Source: Salmonella phage IME207
Length of the DNA: 47,564 bases
Sequence record: KX523699.2
Strand: one strand, 5' to 3'
The translations under genes were made by a program, and so were the position numbers. The notes below the pieces were generated by a model that ran no database searches, was not told the origin of the DNA, and saw only the letters and a list, made by a program, of their open reading frames with translations. Shown piece after piece: positions 5,431-37,459 of this stretch; the first letter of the stretch is position 1, and each line of letters opens with the position of its first letter.

Positions 5431-6358
5431 CGCCAGACTTCCGCAGCCGCGCATTTCTCAAAGTCTCAGCGACCCGTTAGGCGCTGCGGCTCGCCTGTCG
5501 AAGATGGGCAAGGTGATAACGCGCAAATACAAACAGCTCAGGACTCGTTCGCTTGAGTTGTTTCGCACCATTCCGAGCAGTCAGGCTAACGCAGAATCAA
5601 GCGGTCTGTATTTCTATGATTTCAGTAGTGCGCGTGCTGCTACGTTCATGGATGAGCTACAAGCGCTGATTGACGAGATTCTGCTGGAAGGTGATGATTT
5701 CGGTCACAGTAGGATGTGGGCTAATGTGTTCATCGGTGATGCATATCAGGCCGGAACGCAGAAGGCCAACTCAGAACTATCAAGCCTGTCTCCGGTTTAC
5801 GCCGAGCAGAGACCGATTGCTGCAATACTCTACAGTGAGCCTTATCTGAATCGACTGCAACTGGCTTACACGCAAGGATACTCTGACTGGCGCGGATTGA
5901 GTGATTACTCACGTCAGCAACTGGCATCCGTTATTATGGAAGGCATTGCCAGGGGTGCTAATCCTCGCGATGTTGAAGCTGATATCGTTAAGCGCGTTGA
6001 CGTGTCTCACAGCTACGCGAAACAGTTAGCGCAGACAGAAATCACCGGAACACTGCGACAAGCTAACAGGCAGGAAGTCATTGAAGCGCGCGAGGAGTTA
6101 GGAATTGAAACGGTGATGCTGTGGCAATCGGCGCTGATGAAATCAACTAGGGCTTGGCATGCGTCACGGCATGGCAAGTTCTATACACCGGAAGAGATTG
6201 ACACGTTCTATAGTGAAGTCGCCAACCGAAGGAATTGTCATTGCGCACAAACTCCTGCGTTATTAATGGATGGCAAGCCAGTTATTCTCGAATCGTCGCA
6301 GGAGAGGCTTGATAAGCAGCGCGAGGCATGGCAGTCAGCCAATAAAAAAGCCACCTGA
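5411..6358 (+). CDS. head morphogenesis protein (Mu F / SPP1 gp7 family)
   Basis: ATG at 5411 overlaps the portal end. Long head-morphogenesis-like ORF immediately downstream of portal. Confidence 0.7.
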
Positions 6359-6390
6359 TGGTGGCTTCTGCTTATTTCTTCTTAATGAAT
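6345..6390. terminator. bidirectional rho-independent terminator between convergent genes
   Basis: AAAAAAGCCACC-tgat-GGTGGCTT followed by a T-rich run. Confidence 0.6.
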
Positions 6391-6492
6391 CCTCCGCATC
6401 CACACATTGGACACATCGTGTATCTTATTCCTTTCTTTTCAACCCTATCAAGATGATGATGTACGTACTTGCACGCTACACAGATAATCATA

Positions 6493-7092
6493 TCAATCCT
6501 CCAGTTTCACGCCGGGAATTTTGCCTGCTGCAATAGCGTCGTAAATTTTCTTTGCGTGATAAAACTCATTTGGTGTGTCTGGGATACATTCAGGCATATA
6601 CCAGTCAATAGCCTCAATCGCAGCATTACGCTTCCTTTCTGCTTCTGAATGGGAAGGCCGCAGGAATCTAGCTTCAAAACAACCAAGTCCGTAGCTCATG
6701 CGAATAACTGCGGTATTCTCGACATGAGCAATCACCTCTCCACTTTCACCTTGACCGTACATTAACACTCCCTTAGGGTCTACAATTTCGCAGTGCATTC
6801 CAACTGGCGGCAGACCTTTGCTGTTCCATACTGGCTTTTGAGATTCAGCGAGCGCGGATTCATATTGCTTGCGAGATATTGACTGAAGACAATCGCTTCC
6901 AGATGCCTCCTCGTAAATGCAATTCTTGGCGAAGTCTTTGCCGTACTTTAGATAGCAATCATCATCCCAATTGCCTGTTTCGTCATAGAAATCTATGCTG
7001 TTTGTCCCATAATGGCGGCAGCACTCAATAGCCCCATCAGGCCAACCACCATGCTTAGGCAATTCTTTAACTAATAGGTCGATAAGTTTCAT
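6493..7092 (-). CDS. hypothetical protein, accessory cassette gene 3
   Basis: 199 aa. First-listed (distal) gene of a coupled antisense operon inside the structural module. No recognisable domain. Confidence 0.5.
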   Translation of the reverse strand: MKLIDLLVKELPKHGGWPDGAIECCRHYGTNSIDFYDETGNWDDDCYLKYGKDFAKNCIYEEASGSDCLQSISRKQYESALAESQKPVWNSKGLPPVGMHCEIVDPKGVLMYGQGESGEVIAHVENTAVIRMSYGLGCFEARFLRPSHSEAERKRNAAIEAIDWYMPECIPDTPNEFYHAKKIYDAIAAGKIPGVKLED

Positions 7093-14250: not shown

Positions 14251-14373
14251 ATGAATATAATCCCTATCACTTACTTTCTCACGCTATACGCGCTCACAGA
14301 CTCACCATTGTTTGCACTGGCTACCGCCTCATGGTGCTACATCTCCCTGTGTTATAATTCGACCACAAACTAA
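14251..14373 (+). CDS. hypothetical small membrane protein (40 aa)
   Basis: Strong AGGAGG RBS 7 nt upstream. Confidence 0.3.
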   Translation: MNIIPITYFLTLYALTDSPLFALATASWCYISLCYNSTTN

Positions 14374-14389
14374 CCGTGGAGAGTTAACC

Positions 14390-16269
<1,880 letters not shown>

Positions 16270-23616: not shown

Positions 23617-23692
23617 TGGCACACCATGCAGGACTCGAACCTGCAACCAATAGCTTAGAAGGCTACCGCTCTATCCGTTGAGCTAATGGTGT
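23617..23692 (-). tRNA. tRNA-Arg (anticodon UCU)
   Basis: Folded by hand: acceptor ACACCAT/ATGGTGT, D stem GCTC/GAGC, anticodon loop CTTCTAA, T-loop TTCGAGT. CCA is encoded. 76 nt. Confidence 0.8.
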
Positions 23693-23698
23693 TTAATG

Positions 23699-23786
23699 TG
23701 GCGGATAGTACAGGATTCGAACCTGTGAACCGTTTCCGGTTTATCGGTTAGCAACCGACTGCTTTCGGCCTCTCAGCCAACTATCC
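23699..23786 (-). tRNA. tRNA-Ser (anticodon GCU), long variable arm
   Basis: Acceptor GGATAGT/ACTATCC, anticodon loop TTGCTAA, variable arm ACCG-GAAA-CGGT, T-loop TTCGAAT. CCA is encoded. 88 nt. Confidence 0.8.
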
Positions 23787-26428: not shown

Positions 26429-28806
26429 TGGCTGAAGAAGTCGGCGGGATTGTCTATGAAGTCGGGATGGATGTTAAAGGTCTGAAAGCTGGCGCGACAG
26501 CAGCCAATAAGACTTTGGACGACCTTGAATCATCAACCAACAAAACCACAAATGCGCTTGGCAAGCTGGATAAAAACGCCAGAAATGCTGGCAACGGGAT
26601 GAAGAATGCTGGCGGCGCAGCTTCAGGGCTTAAAACCAGCATGTCGATGTTGGCAGGTGCAATCTCGGTCTCATTGATTATCGAATGGGGAAAGCGATTC
26701 CTTGAGGTTGCAGATAACATGACGCAGCTTCAGGCAAGGATTGCTCGCCTGTCAACTGACGCGAAAACCGCGAACGAAACATTCAGTTCACTGGCAAGTA
26801 TCGCCTCAACCACTGGCGCAAGCCTCAGCGACACCACGAAGCTGTGGGAAACATTGACGTCATCACTGAAGGAGGCTGGCGCGACAAATGCGCAGGTTCT
26901 GAACCTTACCGATACCCTGCAAAAAATAGGTCGAATCGGCGGGTCATCAACAGAAGAAATGGCGAACGCCCTGCGTCAGTTCGGTCAGTCAATTGCTTCT
27001 GGTACAATCCGCGCCGAAGAATTTAACTCCATCCTTGAGCAGATGCCTGAGCTTGCTCGCCAGATTGCGGCGGGTCTTGGTATTTCAATGGGTGAACTTC
27101 GCGCCAGAATGCTCGATGGCAAACTGACAGCAGAAGATGCGCTAAATGCCATTCAGGACAGGACAAGCGTGGTCAATGCTGAGTTTGAAAAACTTCCTCG
27201 CACAATGGATCAGGCTGTTGGTTCTCTTGAAGTTTCATTCTCCAAACTTGTGGTTGCCGTTAACGATGCCACTGGTGCATCAAAAACAGCAGTAGAGATT
27301 ATCGACCAGCTGGCAAAATACATTGATTTCCTCGGCGACAAATCAACCAGCACAAGCGATAAGATTTTATCTCTCGCCACTGTCATTTCTAAGCTAAACC
27401 CGGGCGCATGGGCGCGGATGGGAGTCGATGCGCTTTTTGGTGATGATGATATTGAGAAGCAAAAACAATATAACGATCAGGTCGAGCGATTCGTCAAGGC
27501 ATCAGCAGAAGGTTACGAGCAGACAAAGAAACAGGCTGAAGCAACAAAACACCTGAAGATTGCACAAGCACCAACAAAAGACAAAAAAGGAAAAGGAAAG
27601 GGCAAAAGCGCCGAAGAACGACAAGCTGAATCAGTAGCTGAAAAGCTGGAGAAATTACGCCAGCAAACCATGCTAAATGCAACATCTACCAGCGAACTAT
27701 CCCGCGAGCAAGCCATCCTCAACGCGCAGCAATCTCTTGGCAAGGCTGCCACTCAGGAGCAAATAAAACTGGCTGGCGAGTACGCTGCGAAGATTTGGGA
27801 CCAGAAGAATGCACTGAAGGAACAGGCAGCTGCGGAGAAGGAAAGGCAGCAGCTGGAAAACTCATTTATCGACCTGCGCAAGAAAGCGTCAGCACTAACA
27901 GGAATTGAAGACCAATATGCTACGGACATGGCAAATCTTAAGCAGTACGCAGCAATGTATCCAGAAGAGATAAAAAGAGTTGAGCAGGTAAGGTCAGGGA
28001 TAGAAGCGCAATATCGCCAGCAGCGAATGGATGCTATGTGGGCAGAGTGGCAGCAACAAAGCCTCGGCGCGCAACTGTTCGGCACCGCTCTTGATTCGGC
28101 AATGAGCACGGCATCAAACAGTATCACCGGATTACTGACAGGCACAATGAGCGTTCAGGATGCCATGCGCAGTCTCGGCTCTACGGTGCTGAACTCTCTG
28201 GTAAATAGTTTCGTCGAAATGGGCGTGCAATGGGTTAAATCAGCCGTTATGGGGCAGACTGCGCAGGTTGCAGCCACAGCGACAACCACAGCGGCGCAAA
28301 CGGCAGGACTGGCAACCACAACAGCAGCATCCACGGCGGCGGCAGCCACCACCACGGCGGCATGGACTCCTGCAGCAATCGTAGCATCAATCGGATCATT
28401 CGGCGGGGCAGCTGCAATTGGGGTAGGTGCTGTTCTCGGGGCACTGGCAATGGGTATTGCTGGCAAGCGTAAAAACGGTGGCCCTGTTAGCGCAGGAAGT
28501 ATGTACGAAGTGGGTGAGGGAAACGCACCAGAAATATTCCAGGCGAGCACAGGCAGGCAATACATGATACCTGGTAACTCAGGAAAGGTTATCAGCAATA
28601 AGGATATTCCCGGTGGAGGTGGTGGAGTTGTGGTTTATAATAATGTTTACAATAATTCAAGCAATGCTAGCGCAACAAGCAGGGCCACTGATAACGGTGA
28701 TGGTTCGATAACTATTGAGACATTTATATCCGATATGAATGAAGGCGGACCGATGAGCCAATCTATCTCAAGGAACTTTAATGCCAACAGGAGAGCAACC
28801 GAATAA
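26428..28806 (+). CDS. tail tape measure protein
   Basis: 792 aa, helical and Ala/Gln-rich, with a Thr/Ala low-complexity tract and a Gly-rich C-terminus. Confidence 0.85.
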   Translation: MAEEVGGIVYEVGMDVKGLKAGATAANKTLDDLESSTNKTTNALGKLDKNARNAGNGMKNAGGAASGLKTSMSMLAGAISVSLIIEWGKRFLEVADNMTQLQARIARLSTDAKTANETFSSLASIASTTGASLSDTTKLWETLTSSLKEAGATNAQVLNLTDTLQKIGRIGGSSTEEMANALRQFGQSIASGTIRAEEFNSILEQMPELARQIAAGLGISMGELRARMLDGKLTAEDALNAIQDRTSVVNAEFEKLPRTMDQAVGSLEVSFSKLVVAVNDATGASKTAVEIIDQLAKYIDFLGDKSTSTSDKILSLATVISKLNPGAWARMGVDALFGDDDIEKQKQYNDQVERFVKASAEGYEQTKKQAEATKHLKIAQAPTKDKKGKGKGKSAEERQAESVAEKLEKLRQQTMLNATSTSELSREQAILNAQQSLGKAATQEQIKLAGEYAAKIWDQKNALKEQAAAEKERQQLENSFIDLRKKASALTGIEDQYATDMANLKQYAAMYPEEIKRVEQVRSGIEAQYRQQRMDAMWAEWQQQSLGAQLFGTALDSAMSTASNSITGLLTGTMSVQDAMRSLGSTVLNSLVNSFVEMGVQWVKSAVMGQTAQVAATATTTAAQTAGLATTTAASTAAAATTTAAWTPAAIVASIGSFGGAAAIGVGAVLGALAMGIAGKRKNGGPVSAGSMYEVGEGNAPEIFQASTGRQYMIPGNSGKVISNKDIPGGGGGVVVYNNVYNNSSNASATSRATDNGDGSITIETFISDMNEGGPMSQSISRNFNANRRATE

Positions 28807-29278
28807 TGGCTATCATCAAATACCCTGACTGGCTGCCATTGGCGCAGCGCGCCAGTAAAAACCTGACACAGCAAACCCCGTTCCGCAGCGATCAACCTGC
28901 TGTCGGAGCGCCGATTTTTCAGAAGATGACAACTGATATTGCGGCGACATGGAGTCTGACGTGGGTTTTCACGCTGGCGGAGGAGCGTGCATTTATCCAG
29001 TGGTTGCGTAGTCCTAACTACCTCAACAAATGCAACAACTGGTTCACCATGATGATTGATCTCGGAGGCAGCGGCTTACAGGAGCAGACGCTGCATTTTA
29101 CCGATTATCCGGTGCAGACCAGTATTGATGGTGGCGTGGTCACGTGGACTGGCAATGTTATCGCCAAGAAACTCAATAACACTATGGATGAGTTTGATGA
29201 TGTTCTGGTTGAGCTGGATTACAGATGGTATAGCTTCCTTGATGAAACTGTAAACAGAGAACTACCAGAACACAGTAA

Positions 29279-29282
<4 letters not shown>
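28806..29282 (+). CDS. minor tail protein (M-like / distal tail)
   Basis: ATGG overlap with the tape measure stop. Position. Confidence 0.45.
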
Positions 29283-33277
<3,995 letters not shown>

Positions 33278-33316
33278 TACAATATACATCAAATTCACAA
33301 AGGAGCATTTATTATA

Positions 33317-36247
33317 ATGGCTACCACACCAACTAATAAACCAATTCCATCGGAAGACCCACGCGACCTTAAATTTAATGCTGGGAAAATCGACGAAGTT
33401 GTCAACTCTGATGCGCACTACTACACCGACCGCTTCGGGGTGCGTCGCTGGACAATTGCTGGTTTCCAATACACCGCAGAAGAAGCTATCCGTAAATATG
33501 GCTACATCACTATGGACAGCTTCGAAGATGGTGCGACACTGACGCTTCCCAATCAGACACTGCGTTATGAAGCAAATGGAGAATATTATCGCTGGGATGG
33601 GGAATTTCCCAAAGTAGTACCAGCTGGTTCAACTCCAGATAGCACTGGTGAGGTTAAATTAGGAGCGTGGGTGAGTGTTGGTGATGCTTCATTAAGAAGC
33701 CAGCTTTCTGACCCTGATGGCGCAACAAAATATCCAGATTTGCAGATCGCAAGATGGAGAGACACATTCGACCCGCGCGGGTGGAATGCAAAAGGTGATG
33801 GGGTCACCGATGACACCTCAGCGCTTAATGGCGTATTAAACGCCGCACCAGTTGGTCAGAAAATTAATGGCAATGGGAAGACATATAAGGTCACATCCCT
33901 GCCTGACATTAGTCGCTTCATCAACACTCGTTTCGTTTATGAGCGCATTCCCGGACAACCTCTTTATTATGTCTCTGAAGAATTTGTTCAGGGTGAGCTG
34001 TTCAAAATAACGGACACCCCTTATTACAATGCGTGGCCTCAGGATAAAGCGTTCGTATATGAGAATGTGATATATGCACCTTACATGGGTAGCGATCGTC
34101 ATGGTGTTAGTCGTCTGCATGTATCATGGGTTAAGTCTGGTGATGATGGTCAAACATGGTCTACTCCAGAGTGGTTAACTGATCTGCATCCAGATTACCC
34201 TACAGTGAACTATCATTGTATGAGTATGGGTGTATGTCGCAACCGTCTGTTTGCCATGATTGAAACACGTACTTTAGCCAAGAACGCATTAACCAATTGT
34301 GCATTGTGGGATCGCCCCATGTCTCGTAGCCTGCATCTTACTGGCGGTATCACTAAAGCTGCAAATCAGCGATATGCAACAATACATGTACCAGACCACG
34401 GACTATTCGTGGGTGATTTTGTTAACTTCTCTAATTCTGCGGTAACAGGTGTATCCGGCGATATGACTGTTGCAACCGTAATAGATAAGGACAACTTCAC
34501 GGTTCTTACACCAAACCAGCAGACTTCAGATTTGAATAACGCTGGAAAGAATTGGCACATGGGTACTTCTTTCCATAAGTCTCCATGGCGTAAGACAGAT
34601 CTTGGTCTAATCCCTCGTGTCACAGAGGTGCATAGCTTTGCTACTATTGATAACAATGGCTTTGTTATGGGCTATCATCAAGGTGATGTAGCTCCACGAG
34701 AAGTTGGGCTTTTCTACTTCCCTGATGCTTTCAATAGCCCATCTAATTATGTTCGTCGTCAGATACCATCTGAGTATGAACCAGATGCGTCGGAGCCGTG
34801 CATCAAGTACTATGACGGTGTATTATACCTTATCACTCGTGGCACTCGTGGGGATGGACTAGGTAGCTCTTTGCATCGTAGTAGAGACATAGGTCAGACT
34901 TGGGAGTCACTGAGATTTCCACATAATGTTCATCATACTACATTACCTTTTGCTAAAGTAGGGGATGACCTTATTATGTTTGGTTCAGAACGTGCAGAAA
35001 ATGAATGGGAAGCAGGTGCACCAGATGATCGTTACAAGGCATCTTATCCTCGCACCTTCTATGCACGCTTGAATGTAAACAATTGGAATGCAGATGATAT
35101 TGAATGGGTTAACATCACTGACCAGATTTATCAGGGCGGAATAGTTAACTCAGGTGTAGGCGTTGGTTCGGTAGTTGTGAAGGATAATTACATCTACTAC
35201 ATGTTTGGTGGAGAGGACAATTTTAACCCATGGACATATGGAGATAACTCAGCGAAGGATCCATTCAAATCAGATGGTCATCCCTCAGATTTGTATTGCT
35301 ACAAAATGAAGATTGGCCCAGACAATCGTGTTTCCAGGGAGTTCAGGTATGGTGCTGTACCTAACAGAGCTGTTCCCGTGTTTTTTGATACGAATGGGAT
35401 TCGCACTATTCCTGCGCCAATGGAATTTACAGGGGATTTGGGTTTAGGTCATGTGACCATTAGAGCCAGCACCAGTAGTAACATTCGCTCTGAAGTTTTA
35501 ATGGAAGGTGAATATGGGTTTATCGGGAAATCTATACCGACTGATAACCCGGCAGGGCAGCGCATCATATTTTGCGGGGGTAAAGGCACCAGTTCAACGA
35601 CTGGCGCACAGATTACGCTTTATGGTGCAAATAACACCAACTCAAGGCGAATAGTTTACAACGGGGATGAGCATCTATTTCAGAGTGCTGATGTTAAGCC
35701 TTATAACGATAACGTCACTGCGCTTGGTGGGCCTAGCAACCGTTTCACCACCGCATACCTCGGAAGTAACCCTATTGTTACTTCTAACGGGGAGAAGAAA
35801 ACAGAGCCGGTAGTTTTTGATGATGCTTTCCTGGATGCCTGGGGTGACGTTCACTACATCATGTACCAGTGGTTAGATGCTGTTCAACTGAAAGGCAATG
35901 ATGCTCGTATTCATTTCGGGGTTATTGCTCAGCAAATTCGTGATGTATTCATTGCACATGGTCTGATGGACGAAAACAGTACGTCTTGTCGTTATGCCGT
36001 TCTGTGCTATGACAAGTATCCACGGATGACCGATATGGTATTTTCGCACAATGAAATCGTTGAACACACTGACGATGAGGGTAATGTCACTACCACGGAA
36101 GAACCTGTATACACCGAGGTGGTTATTCACGAAGAGGGTGAGGAATGGGGTGTTCGGCCTGACGGAATTTTCTTTGCTGAAGCTGCTTATCAGCGAAGAA
36201 AACTGGAAAGAATCGAAGCCAGACTTTCTGCTCTTGAACAGAAGTAA
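33317..36247 (+). CDS. tailspike / tail fibre with sialidase-type beta-propeller and C-terminal intramolecular chaperone (peptidase S74)
   Basis: Asp-boxes SGDDGQTW and SRDIGQTW. C-terminal DAWGDVHYIMYQWLDAVQ...HFGVIAQQIRDVFIAHGL is typical of the endosialidase-type auto-cleaving chaperone. Confidence 0.7.
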   Translation: MATTPTNKPIPSEDPRDLKFNAGKIDEVVNSDAHYYTDRFGVRRWTIAGFQYTAEEAIRKYGYITMDSFEDGATLTLPNQTLRYEANGEYYRWDGEFPKVVPAGSTPDSTGEVKLGAWVSVGDASLRSQLSDPDGATKYPDLQIARWRDTFDPRGWNAKGDGVTDDTSALNGVLNAAPVGQKINGNGKTYKVTSLPDISRFINTRFVYERIPGQPLYYVSEEFVQGELFKITDTPYYNAWPQDKAFVYENVIYAPYMGSDRHGVSRLHVSWVKSGDDGQTWSTPEWLTDLHPDYPTVNYHCMSMGVCRNRLFAMIETRTLAKNALTNCALWDRPMSRSLHLTGGITKAANQRYATIHVPDHGLFVGDFVNFSNSAVTGVSGDMTVATVIDKDNFTVLTPNQQTSDLNNAGKNWHMGTSFHKSPWRKTDLGLIPRVTEVHSFATIDNNGFVMGYHQGDVAPREVGLFYFPDAFNSPSNYVRRQIPSEYEPDASEPCIKYYDGVLYLITRGTRGDGLGSSLHRSRDIGQTWESLRFPHNVHHTTLPFAKVGDDLIMFGSERAENEWEAGAPDDRYKASYPRTFYARLNVNNWNADDIEWVNITDQIYQGGIVNSGVGVGSVVVKDNYIYYMFGGEDNFNPWTYGDNSAKDPFKSDGHPSDLYCYKMKIGPDNRVSREFRYGAVPNRAVPVFFDTNGIRTIPAPMEFTGDLGLGHVTIRASTSSNIRSEVLMEGEYGFIGKSIPTDNPAGQRIIFCGGKGTSSTTGAQITLYGANNTNSRRIVYNGDEHLFQSADVKPYNDNVTALGGPSNRFTTAYLGSNPIVTSNGEKKTEPVVFDDAFLDAWGDVHYIMYQWLDAVQLKGNDARIHFGVIAQQIRDVFIAHGLMDENSTSCRYAVLCYDKYPRMTDMVFSHNEIVEHTDDEGNVTTTEEPVYTEVVIHEEGEEWGVRPDGIFFAEAAYQRRKLERIEARLSALEQK

Positions 36248-36253
36248 TAAACA

Positions 36254-36283
36254 AAACCCCGCTTCGGCGGGGTTGTTTTATCA
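36254..36283. terminator. bidirectional rho-independent terminator
   Basis: AAAACCCCGCTTCGGCGGGGTTGTTTTATC. Confidence 0.75.
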
Positions 36284-36784
36284 TCAGAACGGAATGTCGT
36301 CTGAAAAGTCCATCGGAGGCTCATTGCCTCCTTGTGGGCTTTGTTGTTTTTGTGGCTGCTGTTGCTGATTTGTTACCCATCCGCCTTGAGGTTGTTGGCC
36401 TGATTGCTGGCGCGGTTGCTGACCGGAGTCATCACGTTTACCACCAAGCATCTGCATCACGCCGCCCATCTGCGGAATGACAATCTCTGTGGTGTATCTG
36501 TCTATTCCGTTGCTGTCAGTCCATTTACGAGTACGAAGCTGGCCTTCGATGTAAACCTGCGAACCTTTTCGAAGGTATTCTCCTGCAACTTCCGCAAGTT
36601 TCCCGAATATGACAATACGATGCCACTCTGTCTGTTCTTTCTTTTCTCCTGTCTGCTTATCTTTCCACTGCTCAGATGTTGCAACGGAAATGTTGACAAT
36701 TGCAGAACCTGATGCTGAATATTTAACTTCAGGGTCGTTTCCGAGAGTTCCGACAATAATTACTTTATTTACGCCGCGTGCCAT
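36284..36784 (-). CDS. ssb: single-stranded DNA-binding protein
   Basis: OB-fold N-terminus, Gln/Gly/Pro-rich linker, acidic C-terminal tail DFSDDIPF. Confidence 0.85.
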
Positions 36785-36787
36785 TTA

Positions 36788-37459
36788 TTAAAATCCTTCA
36801 ATTGGAGTTTGCTTGTGTTCGGTTTTGGTTTCTTCCTGTGGCTCTGGATGTTGTGGTTGCGGTTTAGCCAGTTTTGCAGGGTTAAATGATTCACCTGATA
36901 CCATGAATTTAGCCTTCATTTCCTGGTAAGCGCCAACAATAACACGAGTTGCTGCATCATCACCACGGAACGCCTTGTATTCTTCGCCATAGATTGAAGC
37001 TAATTCTTCCATGCTGGCTGCGTTTCTAATTAATGCAACTGCGTCTTTTGGTGATTTGCGAGCGGCATTACCGTCATCATCAGCCTGAGCAATACCAAAC
37101 ATTGCTGCGATGGAATATCTGCGTGCATACGTCATTGCTGAACCGTAACCCTGCGCGTCCTTCTTTGCTACTGGCATTGGCATAACGGATAACATGTACT
37201 CGCCAGATTCATGCATTATCGTTGTTTCAAGTTTAAGCACATCCATTGAATCACCATCAATGGCATTCTGGATGATTATAAGACCGTTAGCCTCAAGCGC
37301 TGGGCGTATTGCATCAAGAAACGACTCAAGGTTTGCGTAATTGCTTTTCAGGTGTGGGTTTTTGGCGTTTTTCTTTGCGCCACTACTCATCACCTTACGA
37401 GCCTCAACCAGAGCCTTAATCAGATTTGCTTTTTGTTCTGAAAAAATCATTTCCATCAC
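36788..37459 (-). CDS. Erf-family single-strand annealing protein
   Basis: NPHLKSNYANLESFLDAIRPALEANGL motif region. Genomic context with exonuclease and SSB. Confidence 0.65.
   Translation of the reverse strand: MMEMIFSEQKANLIKALVEARKVMSSGAKKNAKNPHLKSNYANLESFLDAIRPALEANGLIIIQNAIDGDSMDVLKLETTIMHESGEYMLSVMPMPVAKKDAQGYGSAMTYARRYSIAAMFGIAQADDDGNAARKSPKDAVALIRNAASMEELASIYGEEYKAFRGDDAATRVIVGAYQEMKAKFMVSGESFNPAKLAKPQPQHPEPQEETKTEHKQTPIEGF

Follow-up and report, generated by a model that had tools for sequence, protein, structure and literature searches.

The endosialidase of coliphage K1F (endoNF, the product gp17) is specific for α-2,8-polysialic acid. Cassettes encoding endosialidases are found on podophages (K1F, K1E, K1-5), myophages (phi92, phAPEC8), P22-like prophages and Kagunavirus siphophages, and their movement between podo-, myo- and siphophages is already documented. 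Siphophages of the Skatevirus group, as described in the BASEL study, have a single enzymatic tailspike, its gene lying directly downstream of the J-like one; the glycan recognized by this tailspike is their essential, terminal receptor and their host ranges are very narrow. The subject here is the tailspike gene of phage IME207, which is labelled a Salmonella phage and, classed as Shuimuvirus IME207, is the type species of its genus. The complete IME207 genome (47,564 bp, GC 46.4%) makes up the window, and the gene, encoding a putative endosialidase precursor, lies at 33317..36247 on the + strand (ATG start, 976 aa plus a stop codon in the list of open reading frames). With a probability that we put at about 0.9, the product is the single receptor-binding and receptor-destroying endo-α-2,8-sialidase of IME207, of the endoNF type.

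Endosialidase catalytic region

Residues 153 to 822 of the tailspike aligned without gaps to the K1F endoNF structures 1v0e and 3gvj-l (E = 0, ~98% identity). Between aa 178 and 976, 785 of 799 residues were identical to those of K1F gp17, with 14 substitutions, and the alignment ran at a constant offset of 88 residues. The endosialidase N-terminal extension (aa 158-224, 33788..33988, + strand) matched Pfam PF12218 End_N_terminal at E = 2e-38 and aligned to 1v0e from residue 2 of that structure. It is followed by the six-bladed β-propeller catalytic domain (aa 225-666, 33989..35314, +), which matched PF12217 End_beta_propel at E = 1e-220 over 366 of the 367 profile positions. Inserted in the propeller is a β-barrel (aa 336-418, 34322..34570, +) that covered the full profile of PF12195 End_beta_barrel (E = 3e-48) and was 100% identical to its K1F counterpart; the lectin-like β-barrel of endoNF holds a polysialic-acid binding site. 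The triple-β-helix stalk (aa 669-822, 35321..35782, +) was recognized by PF12219 End_tail_spike at E = 2e-79.

A preliminary description, made from the letters of this DNA, had noted two Asp-boxes in the central part of the protein, taken that part to be of the sialidase type, proposed a comparison with the endoNF structure and named polysialic acid (K1) or a related capsule as the possible receptor. A regular-expression scan placed the two boxes at aa 274-281 (SGDDGQTW, 34136..34159, +) and aa 522-529 (SRDIGQTW, 34880..34903, +), equivalent to aa 362-369 and 610-617 of K1F gp17. The number of S.D.G.TW matches expected by chance from the tailspike's own composition is ~0.0006. The presence of all four endosialidase Pfam families, together with the matches to 1v0e and 3gvl at E = 0, bears out the sialidase-type region, and the endoNF-type propeller speaks for polysialic acid as the probable receptor.

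Twenty-two functional residues of endoNF were checked in the tailspike, their roles being taken from the literature except for R837, S848 and Q853, and all 22 were conserved. His262, Arg461, Glu493, Arg508 and Arg559 correspond to H350, R549, E581, R596 and R647 of K1F, which are the catalytic residues of endoNF (PMC12632334). Also kept, in K1F numbering, were the active-site network residues Q330, D331, H527, S528, K585, N699 and K410, the folding residues R866 and D994, and R812, Y821, R837, S848 and Q853 in the stalk. The last three are the polysialic-acid binding site of the endoNF stalk. R812 and Y821 are named as stalk residues in the K1F deep mutational scan.

The 14 substitutions relative to K1F include R602G, S522R, A538V and A307V and, in the stalk, E844K and D863N (K1F numbering). 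Six of them, R602 included, were sought in the main text of the deep mutational scan and none was mentioned there. S522R, A538V and A307V recur in the natural variants P0013, P0014 and P0017. Position 602 is Ile in the near-identical natural variant P0013 and is occupied by other residues in more distant endosialidases; R602G is probably tolerated because natural endosialidases vary at this position. From the ~98% identity we infer the activity of an endo-α-2,8-sialidase of the K1F endoNF type.

C-terminal chaperone and predicted self-cleavage

The last 154 residues (aa 823-976, 35783..36244, +) form a predicted intramolecular chaperone and autoprotease domain, identified through PDB 3gw6 and PF13884. 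Residues 702 to 976 matched the endoNF stalk-plus-chaperone structure 3gw6 at E = 3e-183, and weaker matches were obtained to the GA-1 neck appendage (3gud, E = 8e-13) and to the T5 L-shaped tail fibre (4uw8, E = 0.0019). Peptidase_S74 (PF13884) matched aa 826-883 with 36.7 bits against a cut-off of 22 (E = 5e-09). Within this match, at aa 840-886 (nt 35834-35974), lie the C-terminal strings DAWGDVHYIMYQWL and HFGVIAQQIRDVFIAHGLMDE, and HFGVIAQQ, which holds the GVIAQ trimerisation motif, is at aa 866-873.

K1F gp17 is annotated as processed to gp17* (aa 2-910) and gp17-CTD (aa 911-1064). The 910/911 processing site corresponds to Thr822|Ser823 in IME207, giving a predicted mature end at Thr822 and a predicted released fragment of 154 aa, and the alignment to the endoNF crystal structures stops at aa 822. 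Autocleavage of endoNF involves an S911/K916 dyad, in which the serine is both nucleophile and scissile site and the lysine is the base (PMC8326128, PMC3742440), and it needs R897 of the stalk (PMC8326128). The equivalent residues Ser823, Lys828 and Arg809 are all conserved in the IME207 tailspike. The preliminary description had assigned this domain to the chaperone type of the K1F/K1E endosialidases and T5, expected a serine-lysine dyad and suggested that the C-terminal ~150 residues are auto-cleaved. The affinity to endoNF is strong and that to the T5 fibre weak, the dyad is in place, and by alignment to gp17-CTD the removed part would be Ser823-Lys976.

The chaperone domain alone would not be diagnostic, because in the phage 6947 tailspike a C-terminal domain homologous to it (42% identity) stands behind an unrelated central domain. 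It is the propeller match that settles the predicted specificity.

Anchor and predicted docking on the tail

At the N-terminus, aa 1-135 matched gp13, the tailspike of Shigella siphophage Sf11 (PDB 9occ_G, E = 1e-69). From this match, the helices at aa 4-59 (33326..33493, +) are predicted to be the anchor that docks on the distal tail protein. The adjoining Tail_spike_N domain (aa 60-123, 33494..33685, +; PF18668, E = 1e-19) contains the 5' recombination zone described below. The predicted docking partner is the distal tail protein of 158 aa (28806..29282, +), which matched residues 1-155 of Sf11 gp17 (PDB 9occ_C, E = 5e-100). The baseplate hub or J-like tail tip protein (828 aa, 30791..33277, +) matched Sf11 gp14 over its full length (PDB 9occ_E, E = 0). 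The hub gene ends 39 nt before the tailspike ATG and the tailspike gene is directly downstream of it.

Cryo-EM of Sf11 revealed six gp13 trimers docked on the distal tail protein gp17, with the three N-terminal helices (4-59) of each trimer bundled with one adaptor helix of gp17, and salt bridges between tailspike Arg16 and Lys19 and gp17 Glu129, Glu136, Glu147 and Glu152 (PMC12724387). Arg16 and Lys19 are conserved in the IME207 anchor and all four adaptor-helix glutamates are kept in the IME207 distal tail protein. Since the anchor residues, the glutamates and the hub are all present, docking of the Sf11 type is a likely mechanism for the IME207 tailspike.

PHROGs and Pfam scans covered 25 of the 33 open reading frames of ≥ 150 aa, and revealed major tail, tape measure and minor tail proteins, an NlpC/P60 protein, the hub, and head, lysis and replication genes. 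These 25 frames included no second tailspike or depolymerase, and the tailspike is predicted to be the single receptor-binding protein of IME207.

Proposed mechanism

The 976-aa precursor would fold as a trimer, after which Ser823, activated by Lys828 and assisted by Arg809, would cut the Thr822-Ser823 bond. Cleavage would free the chaperone and leave a kinetically stable mature trimer (~822 residues). The helices at aa 4-59 of each trimer may then bundle with the adaptor helix of the distal tail protein (28806-29282) and, by analogy with Sf11, six trimers would ring the tail tip. The propeller sites (Glu493, Arg508, Arg559, His262 and Arg461) would cut polysialic acid, with the barrel and stalk sites holding the chain, and the phage would tunnel through a K1-type capsule until the hub contacts the outer membrane.

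Several points count against this scheme. The 2016 genome announcement reported that IME207 was isolated from hospital sewage on multidrug-resistant Klebsiella pneumoniae and that it lysed strains of K. pneumoniae and Salmonella. The substitution R602G (Gly514 in IME207) is only six residues after catalytic Arg508. The distal tail protein is short, 158 aa versus 457 aa in Sf11, and does not have the ~300-aa C-terminal appendage of the latter; therefore the stoichiometry of six trimers stands by analogy only. More generally, the analysis shows sequence identity, domain content, residue conservation, gene context and mosaic junctions, and enzymatic activity, cleavage, virion stoichiometry and host are inferred.

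Probable host of IME207

α-2,8-Polysialic acid is not known to occur in either of the published host genera, Klebsiella and Salmonella. A review of K1 biology lists as makers of polysialic acid only Escherichia coli K1, Neisseria meningitidis of group B, Moraxella nonliquefaciens as well as Mannheimia haemolytica A2. Since the only tailspike is of the K1 type and the published hosts are not known to make polysialic acid, the natural host is predicted to be a bacterium with a polysialic-acid capsule, E. coli K1 being the most probable. Misidentification, a mixed lysate or clearing of spots that involved no productive infection would most likely account for the hosts that were published. A scan for the polysialyltransferase NeuS (from the kps/neu cluster of E. 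coli UTI89), aimed at Klebsiella and Salmonella species and made by exact 8-residue words in one genome per species, found nothing; as even E. coli was missed, this negative has hardly any weight. A scan for endosialidases with eight aligned catalytic domains, again in one genome per species, gave no confirmed relative and is uninformative on strain-level prophages.

That the published host range is right, and that IME207 productively infects K. pneumoniae and Salmonella, is improbable. The tailspike would then have to act on some other glycan, for example one containing sialic acid, or be dispensable, with infection through the hub only. In addition to the isolation and lysis reported in the announcement, many Salmonella phages belong to the backbone family, and the IME207 hub is 96-98% identical to theirs, so that entry into Salmonella is plausible once the glycan barrier has been passed. 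The hubs of 40 phages of Escherichia, Shigella and Salmonella, and of one more with an Acinetobacter label, are 95-98% identical to that of IME207. However, no Klebsiella phage was present among the 40 closest hub proteins, and polysialic acid is the substrate for which endoNF is specific: the catalytic core, the three binding regions and the named functional residues of the tailspike are all endoNF-like, whereas the polymer is unreported in the published hosts. The relatives of the backbone are strictly glycan-dependent through a single tailspike, and the scanned reading frames offered no second receptor-binding protein that might bypass it. The announcement, moreover, gave no plaque, efficiency-of-plating or strain-identification data. 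Host labels are odd elsewhere too, as an Acinetobacter label is attached both to a Kayfunavirus whose endosialidase is of the K1F type and to a Skate-like siphophage. The former is vB_Aba_01KA, whose endosialidase gene is 93.9% identical, and the latter is vB_AbaM_AB4P2; both labels look unreliable.

It is distinctly improbable that a phage with an endoNF-type tailspike truly forms plaques on clinical K. pneumoniae and/or Salmonella. If it does, some hospital isolates may carry an unnoticed K1-like polysialic-acid surface polymer or, alternatively, a siphophage of the Skatevirus group would infect without engaging the only substrate of its tailspike. Much more probable is the modest reading that IME207 is a phage of E. 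coli K1 which since 2016 has stood under a wrong label in GenBank, RefSeq and the taxonomy of the International Committee on Taxonomy of Viruses (ICTV), and which virome studies take for a Klebsiella/Salmonella phage. A wrong host label may pass into training sets for host prediction, lists of phage-therapy candidates and interpretations of viromes. A gut-virome paper repeats the Klebsiella/Salmonella host in its reading of IME207 enrichment in centenarians.

It is very doubtful that the tailspike has lost some or all of its catalytic activity and is a binder derived from an endosialidase, comparable to the inactive endosialidase endoNA2 used as a polysialic-acid probe (PMC10272209). The 14 substitutions in aa 178-976, with R602G close to catalytic Arg596 (K1F numbering) and E844K and D863N in the stalk, would allow it, and in the K1F deep mutational scan the tailspike is generally fragile, 44% of single variants being depleted. 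However, no substitution falls on a residue reported to be catalytic, substrate-binding, or needed for folding or cleavage, and several are found in nature, namely the three shared with P0013, P0014 and P0017 and a change at position 602 in P0013. Furthermore, a lytic phage would stop short of the membrane if its sole tailspike were unable to cut the capsule. An active endosialidase directed at a K1-type capsule is thus preferred to a mere binder.

Mosaic structure of the tailspike gene

The IME207 backbone has ~90% DNA identity to Skate/swi2/C1/6947/Sf11/Vi II-E1-like siphophages of Escherichia, Shigella and Salmonella. In blastn comparisons, similarity to the closest backbone relative (phage 6947) ran through the hub into the tailspike gene, ended at 33693 and restarted at 36246, while similarity to K1F spanned 33576-36258 with 95.4% DNA identity over 2.68 kb. 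Because the two similarities overlap at 33576-33693 and 36246-36258, the crossovers were placed in a stretch of 118 nt (33576-33693) in the region coding for Tail_spike_N, and at the stop codon (TAA, 36245-36247).

The protein is divided in the same way. Residues 1-128 are of the backbone type, 92-100% identical to the phage 6947 tailspike (93% for aa 1-135). Residues 121-200, and among them 129-177 just after the anchor, are identical to a family of 983-aa endosialidases from uncultured 45-48 kb contigs and only 65-85% identical to K1F. The stretch from aa 200 to 800 is of the K1F type (95-100% identity), and aa 801-976, with the chaperone domain, are near-identical in K1F, P0019 and P0012.

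An assembly artefact, in which reads of a co-purified K1F-like podophage were joined to a Skate-like backbone, would be conceivable for a genome assembled from Ion Torrent reads with Newbler and with short backbone-similar stretches at the block ends (33576-33693 and 36246-36258) that could allow mis-joins, but this is effectively refuted by the metagenome contig ERZ28663180. A second family of 983-aa endosialidases with the same anchor at the same locus on many 45-48 kb contigs and the coverage of 890-3056x throughout reported in the announcement also speak against an artefact. ERZ28663180 (17.6 kb, from ENA) carries the same 976-aa gene in the same context across both junctions, and aligned to window positions 31226-36887, from the hub through the SSB gene, as one ungapped block of 5,663 nt with 99.06% identity. 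The remainder of this contig was only 84-96% identical to IME207. Since an independent contig carries the same gene across both junctions, the mosaic gene really exists and circulates, rather than being a chimera made in assembly.

The cassette is 95.4% identical to K1F versus about 86-91% for the backbone and any sequenced relative. That the cassette is closer to K1F than the backbone is to any relative points to a recent cassette exchange with K1 coliphages, which would imply recent co-infection of a common host.

Residues 141-245 of K1F gp17, which separate the T7-type anchor from the endosialidase, are homologous to the Tail_spike_N region of IME207 (window 33482-33787), with identity of 28-65% rising to 85%. 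PF18668 is listed for K1F-type proteins, and a K1F-like variant of 973 aa, P0014, has no Tail_spike_N segment. This suggests that K1F received the endosialidase cassette along with what was left of an anchor of the Tail_spike_N type.

Recombination has also affected the neighbourhood of the gene. In the metagenome relative with the 99%-identical block, L004, a 346-aa AAA_24 protein (5563-6603) takes the place of the 223-aa ERF-family recombinase of IME207 (36788-37459), the recombination module being swapped immediately beside the shared tailspike block.

Tailspike gene and neighbouring features

The frame at 33317-36247 is by far the longest open reading frame over its stretch. A ribosome-binding site, AAGGAG (33300..33305, +), read from the sequence, lies 11 nt upstream of the ATG. 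A terminator scan gave a strong bidirectional hairpin (36255..36274, both strands; 8 bp stem, six of its pairs being G-C) where 36 nt separate the convergent tailspike and SSB genes. Because K1F similarity ends at 36258 and backbone similarity restarts at 36246, this terminator is assigned by alignment to the backbone and not to the K1F-like cassette. A promoter scan of 33000-36500 gave 7 sites against 6.5 expected in shuffled sequence, and no promoter is claimed; the simplest reading places the tailspike gene in the tail operon.

A gene for a homing endonuclease with HNH_3 and AP2 domains (204 aa, 29279-29893, - strand) separates the distal tail protein gene from the baseplate gene that comes next, whereas the two tail genes are adjacent in phage 6947. 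On contig L003 a different endonuclease-like gene (T5orf172/DUF723) is situated between the tape measure and distal tail protein genes. Adjacent genes for tRNA-Arg(TCT) and tRNA-Ser(GCT) (23617-23786, -), upstream of the major tail protein gene, are absent from the genome announcement. In the head module, a 496-aa reading frame (14312-15802, +) immediately upstream of the genes for head decoration and major capsid proteins matched only phrog_760 (function unknown) and had no Pfam match.

The tailspike sequence has been public since 2016. The product is an exact match to ANW46772.1 / YP_009322784.1, annotated as 'tail spike protein'. The genome announcement names only a 'tail fiber protein', and an endosialidase is absent from its text. 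In one paper, Kayfunavirus and Phapecoctavirus tail proteins fall into a cluster with that of IME207, from which no conclusion was drawn there. No functional description of the tailspike was found in the part of the IME207 literature examined.

Uncultured relatives

At least 10 protein clusters (P0018-P0027) consist of 983-aa endosialidases with 75-77% overall identity. Their contigs, which reach 45-48 kb, come from metagenomes and from assemblies of sequencing runs. Shuimuvirus-like K1 phages seem to be common, although uncultured.

A 4.56-Mb chromosome contig of Atlantibacter hermannii encodes P0031, an endosialidase of 984 aa with 69% identity, full coverage and an N-terminus of the Tail_spike_N type. 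The gene presumably lies in a prophage, and it raises the question of a polysialic-acid capsule in A. hermannii.

The tailspikes of ST1UNAM and ZCEC08 are annotated as 'endo-N-acetylneuraminidase'. Their similarity to the IME207 gene ends at nt 33694, and the annotation probably rests on the shared chaperone domain only.

Comparison with known systems

The closest system as regards the enzyme is K1F gp17 (endoNF of a Kayfunavirus; PDB 1v0e, 3gvj-l, 3ju4 and 3gw6). The domain order is the same, and both Asp-boxes, the catalytic and binding residues and the Ser-Lys dyad are shared. The difference is in the anchor: in K1F gp17 a T7-type tail-fibre anchor (PF03906) takes up the first ~140 aa, whereas the first 128 aa of the IME207 tailspike are a siphophage anchor like that of Skate and Sf11, and the IME207 protein is shorter by 88 residues. 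As an enzyme it brings nothing new, since it is a near copy of the best-characterised endosialidase.

As regards the anchor, the closest proteins are the tailspikes of the Skatevirus group (Sf11, Skate, swi2, C1, 6947, Bas77-81 and Vi II-E1), which have the same anchor, locus and docking partner. Their receptor-binding domains, however, are O-antigen or Vi-capsule enzymes unrelated to the IME207 endosialidase, and the phage 6947 tailspike has no similarity to that of IME207 between aa 136 and ~790. IME207 would thus be a natural example of an Sf11-type adaptor-helix interface that bears a capsule depolymerase in place of an O-antigen enzyme, which lends support to the use of this anchor as a scaffold on which tailspikes are swapped. 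The mapped junctions, in the shared Tail_spike_N segment and at the stop codon, show where such swaps occur.

The 983-aa endosialidases share both the anchor (95-98% identity to IME207 over aa 1-80) and a near-identical chaperone domain, but their central catalytic region is 45-85% identical (77% overall) and is of a different subtype. One of them, P0019, is encoded on BRDB01017406.1 (L003, 47,425 bp) in the IME207 gene order of hub, tailspike, SSB, ERF and DUF3799.

Endosialidase cassettes are already known on long non-contractile tails. The Kagunavirus siphophages K1G, K1H and JSSK01 have an endosialidase tailspike with the same four Pfam domains plus an S74 chaperone (PMC11641727). Compared by description, Kagunavirus (Guernseyvirinae) genomes are ~44.5 kb with 50% GC and have a different anchor, whereas IME207 has 47.6 kb and 46.4% GC. 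By sequence, the IME207 tailspike has every testable feature of phage endosialidases, of the S74 chaperone family and of tailspikes docked as in Sf11. It is one more member of a known enzyme family, on a different siphophage backbone.

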